Assembly (NCBI GenBank): GCA_965116925.1
Contig: OZ220744.1
Coordinates: 2,432,001-2,496,000, forward strand
Reading direction: 5' to 3'
DNA from: Candidatus Poribacteria bacterium
GTDB lineage: Bacteria; Poribacteria; WGA-4E; PCPOR2b
Length of the DNA stretch: 64,000 bases
Part shown: positions 48,179 to 50,026 of the stretch, piece after piece
Layout of the letters: each line of letters opens with the position of its first letter
Position numbering within the stretch: the first letter of the stretch is position 1
The notes under the pieces: model-generated
What the model was told of the DNA's origin: nothing
The model's database searches: none
What the model saw: only the letters and a program-made list of their open reading frames with translations
Made by a program: the position numbers and the translations under genes

Positions 48179-50026
48179 TCATTCAATTGGAATCTGTACC
48201 CTTTCTTCACCCAAAACGCTGGATAATACCTCTATAAGTTCATCAAGGTGGATATGTCGAAAAAACTCAGAAAGCCGTTTCTGCTTCGGTTTAGTTGGTA
48301 GAAGGATGAAATCCTGATGATGCTTTTGGACTCGTTCTAAAACCTTGCGATAGGCGTGGCTTGTAGCATAGCCGACAATCAGTTCATAGTGTGCTTTATG
48401 GCGATCAAGATAGGCGTTGAACCGATCTGCACCGAGTTGAATCTGAGCAGCGTTTCGAGGTAGCAGTTGAAAATCGTAACGGACCACTGCCTCTTTTGAT
48501 TCAAATTCTTCGGGGACGGGACCATAGAGTCCCGAAAGGGTAATTTTGTGGATGAACCGCTGGCCTTTGCCGAATGCGGTGTGGAGTTTCGTTTTTACAA
48601 TGGAATGGGTGCGCGACAGAGAATACGGCTTCTTGCCAGCACAGGGGATTGTCAAAAGAATCCGCTTCTCTGTAGGCGGCTGGTAATTCGGCGGGATTGA
48701 AAATGAGTCGGGGGTGTAGTTCAGCGAGAGGGCTTGTTTCGTCGGTTGAGTTGTTAAACGTTTGGGGACGGGGACAACGCTTTTTGACATCTTCGATGCA
48801 AATTCCTCCCTGTTTTCAATCAACCAGCTGACTGCATCTCGAACGCCACGTGCTTTTGAGGCGTGACGGACGAGTGCTTCAAGTGAATCACCGGCTTTTA
48901 TCGCTTGCACCATGTTGTCAAGGGTTGCGGCCTCCATCTCGAAATTGTGAAGCGCGATTTTAGCGTAGTAGTAGCTTTTATATTGTCCTGTCGAAGTGCG
49001 TCGATAACTTTTTGGCTCCATGAATGCTTGTTGCATCTCTTCAAGGCAGGTTTCTCGGCAAATACGACAGGTGCATTCCATCGAATCTAATTCTAAGATC
49101 TTGAGTTTCTTTCCTGTCTCCGGATGTGAATAGCTGAGGCTACGCGCTGCTTGAATGTAACTTGTGCTGTCAAAACTATCTACCCCCAAATATGCGAGTA
49201 TGGGAGTCAAGTTACCGGAGACTCCGAAGGCGTGGATGGGAGTCCGATCTCGTGCGGATTCAGGGATGGCGTCAAGGACACCGCATATCCGTGATAGCAC
49301 TTCTGAATCGTTATCGCCCCGTAGGGGTACGAGCGAGCCGACCGCAAGTCCGAAGGGAAGTCGCCCCGGCAACCGTTCAAAAACTTGCGTCACGTAGTTC
49401 TGAATATCTTCTCTGGATTGTCCGTGGCAGCAGATATACAGGTAAGGTGGGTTTTCCATCTCTGCAAGCCGCGCCGCGACTCGAAATGCGTTCTGAAGAC
49501 TCCGCTTCATTCGGGTTTCTGCTTCTGAACGGACGAGACCGGGAGGTAGTGGATAATCTAAGGATGCGATGATGTCTCCACCGAGACTAAGTTGAAAATC
49601 CAGGATATCATCCGCTTCTGTTTCCTTGTGAATACCGTATTCCGAGAGGGAGAGTCCAGCGTTGTAAAGCAGTTTGAAGCCGCCTGAATCCAGAAACATG
49701 GGAGCATCATAGGGGCCGTTGGGTTCCCGGTAGCGTTCACGCATCGGTTTTTCTCGCCAGTAGCCGATGTGCTTGCCTCTGAGGTTAAAATCGAGGAAAT
49801 GCAATACCTGCGAGAGGATTGGCACGTTGTATTTCATAACGTCTTTCAGCAGGTATTTCCATATCCCACCCCCATTTGTGCTCGTGCTCGTCATGAATGA
49901 AAGGACGGGAAATAAAATTGGTGTTGATAGTGGTGGGAGTGTTACGCCGTCGCGCTGTAGATAAAGTTTTCCAATCCTGCCAGCGTTCCGCTGGATTGTT
50001 GTCTGATAAACTGACGTGTCGGTCAT
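48179..50026 (-). CDS. tRNA-guanine transglycosylase-family domain fused to an ArcS-like (DUF5591) domain
   Basis: FLDSGGF, SLDYP, AVGSLVPL, HAFG, GVDSFDS, Zn site CTCRIC...HN; C-terminal PCAGKKPYSLSRTH...SGLYGPVPEEFE...YD. Confidence 0.85.
   Translation of the reverse strand: MTDTSVYQTTIQRNAGRIGKLYLQRDGVTLPPLSTPILFPVLSFMTSTSTNGGGIWKYLLKDVMKYNVPILSQVLHFLDFNLRGKHIGYWREKPMRERYREPNGPYDAPMFLDSGGFKLLYNAGLSLSEYGIHKETEADDILDFQLSLGGDIIASLDYPLPPGLVRSEAETRMKRSLQNAFRVAARLAEMENPPYLYICCHGQSREDIQNYVTQVFERLPGRLPFGLAVGSLVPLRGDNDSEVLSRICGVLDAIPESARDRTPIHAFGVSGNLTPILAYLGVDSFDSTSYIQAARSLSYSHPETGKKLKILELDSMECTCRICRETCLEEMQQAFMEPKSYRRTSTGQYKSYYYAKIALHNFEMEAATLDNMVQAIKAGDSLEALVRHASKARGVRDAVSWLIENREEFASKMSKSVVPVPKRLTTQPTKQALSLNYTPDSFSIPPNYQPPTEKRILLTIPCAGKKPYSLSRTHSIVKTKLHTAFGKGQRFIHKITLSGLYGPVPEEFESKEAVVRYDFQLLPRNAAQIQLGADRFNAYLDRHKAHYELIVGYATSHAYRKVLERVQKHHQDFILLPTKPKQKRLSEFFRHIHLDELIEVLSSVLGEERVQIPIE

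Follow-up and report, generated by a model that had tools for sequence, protein, structure and literature searches.

A single-chain fusion of TGT and ArcS domains in Poribacteria belongs to a distinct paralogue family and may write an archaeosine-type base

Closest described systems

Enzymes of the tRNA-guanine transglycosylase (TGT) type swap guanine for a 7-deazaguanine with the help of an aspartate that acts as nucleophile. The subject of this text is a TGT-type gene of the sponge symbiont Candidatus Poribacteria bacterium, found on the minus strand at 48179-50026 of a stretch of 64,000 nucleotides (assembly GCA_965116925.1, contig OZ220744.1, forward-strand positions 2,432,001 to 2,496,000), which is called the window below. 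Its product joins a TGT barrel with DUF5591, the C1 domain of archaeosine synthase (ArcS), in one polypeptide. The domains and their chemistry are known; the fused arrangement and the family are new. In the full-text literature no description of a cellular or bacterial TGT–DUF5591 fusion was found, subscription journals and supplementary similarity networks (e.g., PMC6884629) lying outside that scope.

Canonical ArcS is described as a TGT-like N-terminal domain followed by C1, C2 and PUA domains (PMC10516641). According to PMC11298593 its C1 domain acts on polymer-bound 7-cyano-7-deazaguanine (preQ0), to whose nitrile it adds lysine or, in M. jannaschii, ammonia; the transfer of lysine prevents the exchange from running backwards. 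The motif PC-x3-KPY-x2-S-x2-H is given as the ArcS signature (PMC10516641, PMC5699537), and the choice between preQ0 and 7-aminomethyl-7-deazaguanine (preQ1) is reported to be set by residues of the TGT pocket (PMC5699537). The 7-deazaguanines of cellular DNA treated in PMC5699537, PMC6884629 and PMC10516641 are dPreQ0 and the amide dADG, made by DpdA, DpdB and DpdC, while deoxyarchaeosine (dG+) in DNA comes so far, in the same reports, from phages and viruses. The phage enzyme ArcS2 is described as C1 alone, and that of Vibrio phage nt-1, when co-expressed with DpdA2 in E. coli, gave dG+ in plasmid DNA (PMC10516641).

Domain architecture and catalytic motifs

The reading frame is open from ATG to stop and translates into 615 amino acids. 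Pfam assigns TGT to residues 106-387 (60.6 bits, E 1.8e-16, cut-off 26.3) and DUF5591 to residues 447-574 (52 bits, E 9.1e-14, cut-off 26), whereas a scan of the whole protein against Pfam and NCBIfam matched no PUA family and the C-terminus lies only about 40 residues past DUF5591. A canonical haloarchaeal ArcS aligned alongside has about 170 further residues with PUA-type matches. An earlier note on this DNA, made from the sequence alone, had claimed a single-chain fusion of a TGT with an ArcS domain and no evident PUA domain, and both statements hold, the two Pfam matches exceeding their curated cut-offs. The same applies to the motifs it had named: translation of the exact coordinates (Table 1) recovers every TGT motif, and PCAGKKPYSLSRTH, read from 48646 to 48605, fits the ArcS signature.

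Conservation of these residues was evaluated in 232 full-length sequences (115 and 44 from two protein searches and 73 from loci), many of them close Poribacteria kin. In the pocket loop G230 is kept in 230 sequences, S231 in 231, L232 in 219, V233 in 228, P234 in 227 and L235 in 205; in the ArcS motif the corresponding numbers are 227 for C462, 229 for K466, 231 for P467, 230 for Y468, 228 for S471 and 216 for H474. Exceptions include P0268, a probable archaeal TGT (arcTGT), and the N-terminally short row P0129, and the cysteine of the ArcS motif is missing in three divergent members (P0132, P0151 and P0163). Since both catalytic sets are almost invariant, both sites are under selection and both activities are probably used. 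As judged from these residues, both halves are probably catalytically competent and kept together across the family.

The pocket loop GSLVPL had been regarded in the earlier note as nearer to the archaeal than to the bacterial type. This is supported by the alignments, which show GGVVPL in P. horikoshii arcTGT (phmmer) and GAVVPL in two haloarchaeal arcTGTs as against GGL-SVGE in the bacterial Tgt of the host genome itself. The canonical haloarchaeal ArcS in the alignment lacks DSGG, the aspartate of LDxP and the pocket loop, and only the second half of its barrel and the zinc site are kept. In contrast, the window protein and its relatives retain the whole TGT catalytic set, as arcTGT does, which means that their TGT half is not a relic of the ArcS type.

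An AlphaFold2 model of the full-length protein was built on a 28-sequence alignment (pLDDT 92, pTM 0.90). Foldseek against PDB lists P. horikoshii arcTGT 1iq8 first (E 1.8e-20, 552 columns), followed by bacterial and human TGTs. The C-terminal 186 residues were folded separately on a 19-row alignment (pLDDT 87); here AF0587 (2q07), the only solved DUF5591 protein, is the sole PDB match at E<=0.001 (E 1.1e-6), and the best among viral models is the DUF5591 protein (ArcS2) of Vibrio phage nt-1 (E 9.7e-8). Weak fold matches were obtained with a phage protein named YaaA (E 4.9e-3) and with DUF6884 proteins (E 1.1e-2 and weaker). As far as the model tells, the C-terminal domain thus adopts the ArcS fold on which the earlier assignment depended.

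Relation to named enzyme families

With 93.2 bits against a cut-off of 350, TgtA/arcTGT (TIGR00432) is the top NCBIfam match of the fusion protein, while true haloarchaeal arcTGTs reach 622 and 630 bits on the same model. The fusion shares with arcTGT the pair of catalytic aspartates, the base-binding aspartate, the zinc site and the preQ0-type pocket. It lacks the C-terminal tRNA-binding domains C2 and PUA of the 1IQ8 arcTGT, which are partly visible in the Foldseek match; two haloarchaeal arcTGTs aligned here are also short in this respect. On ArcS (NF040592) it scores 92.1 bits over residues 274-575 only (cut-off 440), compared to 844 bits for a canonical ArcS from Natronorubrum; C1 with its PC-x3-KPY-x2-S-x2-H motif is present and C2 and PUA are absent. 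Bacterial Tgt (TIGR00430) gives 22 bits against 306.75, and the GGLxVGE pocket is missing. PADLOC found no match with a TGT-like model of the Cap10 kind from type IV cyclic-oligonucleotide-based anti-phage signalling systems (CBASS), DpdA being the only entry listed at E<=1.

Relatives from Halorussus, Planktothrix and Aggregatilineales score similarly (86-126 bits). What they have in common with the window protein is homology over the full length, intact TGT and ArcS-C1 motifs and no PUA. As the cut-offs for TgtA, ArcS, Tgt and DpdA (the latter given below) are all missed, these proteins form a separate and widespread paralogue family without a name. Existing annotation calls its genes "tRNA-guanine transglycosylase" or "7-cyano-7-deazaguanine tRNA-ribosyltransferase". 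Two haloarchaeal carriers each possess four TGT-family genes, i.e., arcTGT, ArcS, a short TGT of about 415 residues and the fusion, the ArcS of Halorussus being assigned by its Pfam match only and the NF040592 score coming from Natronorubrum ArcS. This coexistence also identifies the fusion as a separate paralogue. ArcS works with RaSEA, a radical S-adenosylmethionine (SAM) partner; no radical SAM gene was found among the eight open reading frames (ORFs) inspected beside one haloarchaeal arcTGT–ArcS pair.

Phylogeny and distribution

The phylogeny of the TGT domain was reconstructed from 91 rows (IQ-TREE quick search, LG+G4) and rooted on bacterial Tgt. The fusion family appears as one clade of 65 rows (SH-aLRT 96). 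Its sister group comprises ten short island-borne TGTs (98), and arcTGT lies outside (97). For ArcS, which has a very long branch, the placement is uncertain. Of the fusion of archaeal-type TGT and ArcS proposed earlier, the domains are present, but the TGT domain groups with the short island TGTs and not with arcTGT. By tree and model scores, the fusion family is a distinct fourth TGT paralogue family and not a recent joining of arcTGT with ArcS. By model score (26 bits) the short island TGTs are not DpdA. A shorter subfamily of 498-546 amino acids (P0200, P0202, P0209, P0210, P0212, P0224, P0225 and P0228) forms its own branch inside the family and also carries both the DSGx and the Cx3KPY motifs.

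At E<=0.001 an exhaustive protein search returned 616 representatives, of which 101 remain at E<=1e-30; many are 600-700 residues long and 32-60% identical over the full length. Among 107 confirmed loci in species genomes 80 were kept for analysis, 53 from Poribacteria, 11 from Cyanobacteria, ten from Chloroflexota, one from Symbiobacteriaceae and five from haloarchaea. Full-length copies occur also on two haloarchaeal megaplasmids. A phage origin was considered and rejected, a tblastn search of a phage collection giving no match. Within the phylum Poribacteria strong matches (E<=1e-158) occur in 34 of 101 genomes; a further nine give weak ones only and 58 give none, and some genomes contain two copies. 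The Poribacteria copies are 64-93% identical, their catalytic residues and zinc site are kept and there is no sign of decay.

Host genome and preQ0 supply

The host genome is a single contig of 6.47 Mb and 99% complete. It contains a separate canonical tgt (G000:C1:2215500-2216543, 557 bits to PF01702), so the fusion is not its only Tgt, and the fusion gene is its sole DUF5591 gene. A check for the precursor genes, which the earlier note had proposed along with that for a second tgt, found QueC (213 bits, cut-off 150), FolE (262 bits) and QueD (124 bits, cut-off 89) all over cut-off, as well as QueF (109 bits) and a weak QueE-like match. From these genes it follows that the host makes preQ0 and preQ1. 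QueD consists of two PTPS domains in tandem, encoded by an ORF of 277 residues (L122:5705-6538; G000:C1:2738705-2739538) that adjoins folE. The match to the QueE model is split into profile positions 9-42 and 61-238, about 1 kb apart in one 600-residue frame (G000:C1:3936677-3938359), and the gene apparently contains a large insertion or an extra domain.

Genomic context of the Poribacteria copy

Downstream on the same strand the fusion gene is followed by genes for an ArgD-like transaminase, a cyclophilin, a KamA-family radical SAM aminomutase and a helix-turn-helix protein, and on its other side lie two unnamed ORFs, a TIM-barrel isomerase-type gene, RsgA, Pth, L25 and IspE. Base composition near the gene is about that of the remaining window. 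The KamA-like, cyclophilin and ArgD-like genes span 44740-47764 on the minus strand. The KamA-like gene at 44740-45801 scores as a 2,3-aminomutase (476 bits to the lysine 2,3-aminomutase AblA, below the cut-off of 525) and not as RaSEA; a lysine link between the KamA-like and ArgD-like enzymes and a lysine-using ArcS would be speculation only. Among the 18 larger ORFs scanned in 36960-63659 no genes for preQ0 synthesis, dpd or RaSEA were seen, in accordance with the earlier note. Neither dpdB, dpdC nor dpdD-K was present among the scanned neighbours (a genome-wide search for DpdB or DpdC was not made), and the host genome has no match to Vut_1. On its gene content, the window copy is solitary and has no recognisable restriction partner.

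An operon with the neighbours was considered and rejected, because only the 11 closest loci share the arrangement of the ArgD-like, cyclophilin and KamA-like genes with the two upstream ORFs. Other Poribacteria clades have an alcohol dehydrogenase or an oxidoreductase nearby, or an N6/N4 DNA methylase, which is present in 15 of 53 loci. The two upstream ORFs on the plus strand (50640-52559 with 639 residues and 52749-53831 with 360 residues) matched nothing in Pfam, NCBIfam or PADLOC but are conserved in these 11 loci; by eye they may be glycoside-hydrolase-type or other carbohydrate-active enzymes. Further away, the minus-strand gene at 39426-43820 encodes a protein of 1464 residues with WD40 propellers, leucine-rich repeats and dockerin domains, a eukaryote-like repeat type typical of sponge symbionts.

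Two genomes of the same genus (98-99% complete) have no match to the fusion, although the flanks are in order with 80-83% identity. The gene interval of 2.27 kb is replaced there by about 0.46 and 0.59 kb, and one of the two has a remnant of the 16 C-terminal residues (75% identity, E 0.035, a weak match). Ordered flanks and remnant indicate that an ancestral gene was deleted there rather than inserted here, and judged from these genomes the Poribacteria copy is dispensable. In two metatranscriptome runs of one study contigs at least 90% alike cover most of the gene at a word depth of 2.5-5 compared to 30-40 on the argD side, while in a third RNA run coverage is limited to about 48808-49037; these are contigs of a differing strain, and DNA carry-over is possible.

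The intergenic region upstream of the fusion (50176-50312) contains a short repeat, about 115-140 bp long, whose core is a G+C-rich hairpin; it has 44 matches in the host genome, many with 92-99% identity. The element is absent from contigs of a close relative, where 15 other letters link 50168 to 50304, and in sponge DNA and RNA runs its depth goes into the thousands. It looks like a mobile repeat of the miniature inverted-repeat transposable element type.

Neighbourhoods outside Poribacteria

The earlier note had further suggested that the gene may come from a defence or modification island. This does not fit the window, where the neighbours are housekeeping and carbohydrate genes, but it is borne out for the homologues. 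At least one modification- or defence-type neighbour lies within 10 kb in 24 of the 27 non-Poribacteria loci, with labels that derive from one scanned representative per BLAST cluster and were picked after inspection, and with no background frequency to set beside this count; the three loci without such neighbours are contigs of 8.3, 1.8 and 1.6 kb. The neighbours comprise a DEAD helicase of 1300-1576 residues, often with the MrfA zinc domain and with up to 241 bits on the PADLOC model of DpdJ, besides DpdK-like or phospholipase D (PLD) proteins, a DpdH-like NTPase, QueC, a Vut_1 (YhhQ-type) transporter, nucleoside 2-deoxyribosyltransferase, NurA with HerA, and full GmrSD.

In nine of 11 cyanobacterial loci (L073-L079, L082 and L085) the fusion is part of a fixed trio and is followed by a GmrSD_N/NsnA-like protein (207 bits, about 365 amino acids) and then by a RiboL-PSP HEPN protein of about 210 amino acids. 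From its gene content this trio is a compact candidate defence cassette. In haloarchaea the fusion gene adjoins a trio of DUF6884, short TGT (about 415 amino acids) and an ATPase with HATPase_c_3 (Table 1). DUF6884 gives weak PADLOC matches to DpdC and weak fold matches to the DUF5591 model, and the set is possibly a split, parallel writer. According to the RefSeq annotation of a Haladaptatus plasmid, 17 kb hold a helicase, a PLD-like protein, DUF6884, short TGT, an ATPase, an AAA protein of 1494 residues and two fusion paralogues. Two divergent fusion paralogues per island are found on this plasmid (L100:11956-16655) and in a metagenome-assembled genome of Symbiobacteriaceae (L096:9938-18035).

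Table 1. Positions of the fusion gene, its domains and motifs in the window, and of the haloarchaeal gene trio in its own loci
Feature	Position	Strand	Basis
Whole gene, TGT barrel, linker and DUF5591 (ArcS C1)	48179..50026	-	ORF, Pfam, AlphaFold2 pLDDT 92, pTM 0.90
Pfam TGT match, residues 106-387; barrel begins near residue 1 in the model	48866..49711	-	Pfam, Foldseek
Helical linker and low-confidence loop, residues 391-446	48689..48856	-	AlphaFold2, pLDDT down to 66-79 around 410-430
DUF5591 / ArcS C1 Rossmann-like domain, residues 447-574	48305..48688	-	Pfam, NCBIfam, 2q07 E 1.1e-4 by sequence, Foldseek
DSGG, first catalytic Asp D113	49679..49690	-	exact-coordinate translation; 231/232 family sequences
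LDYP, base-binding Asp D157	49550..49561	-	exact-coordinate translation; 231/232
GSLVPL pocket loop, arcTGT-like, without the Gly-Glu of bacterial preQ1 enzymes	49322..49339	-	exact-coordinate translation
DSFDS, second catalytic Asp D286	49166..49180	-	exact-coordinate translation; 231/232
Zinc site CxCxxC (318-323) to His360	48947..49075	-	Cys 230-231/232, His 231/232
CTCRIC of the zinc site	49058..49075	-	exact-coordinate translation
His360 of the zinc site	48947..48949	-	exact-coordinate translation
PCAGKKPYSLSRTH, ArcS motif PC-x3-KPY-x2-S-x2-H	48605..48646	-	exact-coordinate translation
DUF6884, short TGT and HATPase_c_3 trio	L099:11944-15200, L094:6110-9371, L098:11968-15259, L100:2728-5992		

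Proposed function and alternative explanations

From architecture, fold model, conservation, paralogy, contexts and precursor genes we infer preQ0 as substrate, DNA as target and an amidine as product. The N-terminal barrel would remove guanine from a polynucleotide and insert preQ0, supplied by FolE, QueD, QueE-like and QueC of the host, and the DUF5591 domain would then add an amine to the nitrile of the inserted base. The resulting amidine would be the archaeosine base, or a lysine adduct if no RaSEA-type partner completes the reaction, and conversion in place would also lock the inserted base in. On DNA this would give dG+ or a mark resembling it, comparable to what the separate proteins DpdA2 and ArcS2 of Vibrio phage nt-1 produce. 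That the protein is such a one-protein writer of an amidine in DNA has, in our estimation, about an even chance; for DNA as the target, given activity, the chances seem slightly better than even. The choice of DNA is based on the contexts of the family, the sister group, the patchy occurrence, the phage precedent and the redundancy in haloarchaea, where the carriers already own arcTGT and ArcS for tRNA, so that the fusion must serve another role there. In other lineages the family would act as writer of Dpd-like restriction–modification islands, whereas in the Poribacteria host it would be a solitary, dispensable writer lacking a recognisable restriction partner.

Several observations weigh against this writer of DNA marks. 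ArcS enzymes are RNA enzymes, and PUA is reportedly not needed for archaeosine formation, to judge from the title of a paper by Sabina and Soll from 2006. The fusion scores only 19.2 bits on bacterial DpdA (NF041059, cut-off 200) and 18.6 bits (E 1.5e-4, weak) on the PADLOC model of DpdA, and the rows of the tree include no true DpdA. The gene in the window has neither a helicase or nuclease nor QueC or a transporter next to it, none of the 53 Poribacteria loci has a Dpd-type neighbour, the host genome gives no match to DpdJ, and tblastn found no relative in 50,697 phage records. The after-the-fact choice and cluster-wise assignment of neighbour labels mentioned above belong here as well. Finally, the sequence would allow C1 to make G+, a lysine adduct or the products of nitrile hydrolysis.

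An RNA target, with preQ0 inserted into tRNA (or other RNA) at a position other than 34 and converted by C1 into archaeosine or preQ0-lysine in bacterial RNA, is in our view unlikely, despite the fact that both parent activities are tRNA activities. Structurally the protein is closest to arcTGT (552 columns), among NCBIfam models TgtA scores highest (93 bits), and the C1 scaffold is common to the fusion and arcTGT in the alignment. The window copy moreover lies among the translation-linked genes RsgA, Pth and L25, cyanobacterial loci pair the fusion with a HEPN (RNase-type) protein, and ArcS of T. kodakarensis is described to need no L-shaped tRNA and to act even on the nucleoside (PMC11298593). 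All this has to be reconciled with a protein without C2 and PUA, with strong matches in only 34 of the phylum's 101 genomes together with deletions within the genus, which is unusual for a core tRNA enzyme, and with haloarchaeal carriers that already have arcTGT and ArcS. Elsewhere the neighbours are DNA helicases, nucleases and restriction types dependent on DNA modification, and the sister group consists of island-borne short TGTs.

It is quite improbable that preQ0 enters DNA but DUF5591 hydrolyses its nitrile in a DpdC-like manner to the amide 7-amido-7-deazaguanine (ADG) or the acid 7-carboxy-7-deazaguanine (CDG) and no amidine is made. Phage nt-1 DNA is reported to hold dPreQ0, dG+ and dADG (PMC6884629) and that of STSV-2, where the ArcS motif is conserved, to hold dCDG (PMC10516641), and the C-domain has fold matches to YaaA-named and DUF6884 proteins, the latter also with weak PADLOC matches to DpdC. 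These fold matches are weak, however, the family retains the full ArcS motif (Cys, Lys-Pro-Tyr, Ser and His), and nt-1 ArcS2 gave dG+ when tested (PMC10516641). A role without polymer substrate in this host, i.e., an enzyme of free bases, nucleosides or nucleotides in salvage or a deazapurine natural product pathway, or a decaying remnant of a lost defence system, has the least chance and is highly improbable. It would agree with a solitary and repeatedly lost gene that has no partner genes and with ArcS acting in vitro on the preQ0 nucleoside and 5'-monophosphate (PMC11298593), but the Km of ArcS for the nucleotide is very high (433 uM, PMC11298593), the Poribacteria copies, 64-93% identical, retain all polymer-type catalytic residues of TGT and the zinc site, and no biosynthetic cluster surrounds the window gene.

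Returning to the amidine-writing enzyme of DNA, we tentatively suggest, with somewhat less than an even chance, that this family would be the first in cells to write an archaeosine-type base, dG+ or a lysine-amidine, into chromosomal DNA with a single polypeptide. It would provide the self-mark for Dpd-like or GmrSD/HEPN modules in Cyanobacteria, Chloroflexota and haloarchaea and an orphan epigenetic or anti-restriction mark on the symbiont's own genome in Poribacteria, gained and lost gene by gene. If true, this would mean a new mark for cellular genomes in several phyla and on haloarchaeal plasmids, and a minimal route consisting of one protein and the ordinary preQ0 pathway. If the target were tRNA, archaeosine chemistry would occur in bacterial RNA, which is unreported in the papers searched. 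This single-gene hypothesis is directly testable. Several carriers of the fusion are cultured strains, among them Planktothrix paucivesiculata PCC 9631, Microseira wollei NIES-4236, Nostoc sp. MG11, Natronorubrum texcoconense, Halovenus amylolytica and Halorussus sp. AFM4. Under the present TGT-type annotation the second domain goes unseen, as probably does the true substrate.

Comparison with known systems

ArcS (NF040592) resembles the fusion in having a TGT-like N-domain followed by C1 with PC-x3-KPY-x2-S-x2-H, but the fusion has no C2 and PUA, possesses the full catalytic set in its N-domain, and haloarchaea hold both as separate genes. The arcTGT TgtA (1IQ8) is the best PDB match and shares the aspartate pair, the base-binding aspartate, the zinc site and the preQ0-type pocket loop; it differs in that C1 of the fusion bears the ArcS insertion, in C2 and PUA, which the fusion lacks, and in its position outside the clade of fusions and island TGTs. 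DpdA2 and ArcS2 of Vibrio phage nt-1 likewise combine a TGT-family transglycosylase with an ArcS core of DUF5591 only and no PUA, as described in PMC10516641 and PMC6884629. Like them, the fusion would first insert preQ0 and then convert it on the polymer. They are two viral proteins, whereas the fusion is one cellular polypeptide, has no phage match at the sequence level and is not DpdA in its TGT half by model scores. The Dpd system, in which DpdA, DpdB and DpdC are the writers and DpdD-K serve restriction, shares with the fusion islands DpdJ-, DpdK- and DpdH-like genes, QueC, a YhhQ-type transporter and the logic of a 7-deazaguanine mark combined with helicase and nuclease (PMC5699537). Fusion loci have no orthologue of DpdA, DpdB or DpdC, and the Poribacteria copy is found without restriction genes. 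As the Dpd-like writer in these islands would be the TGT–ArcS fusion, its mark is expected to differ from dADG.

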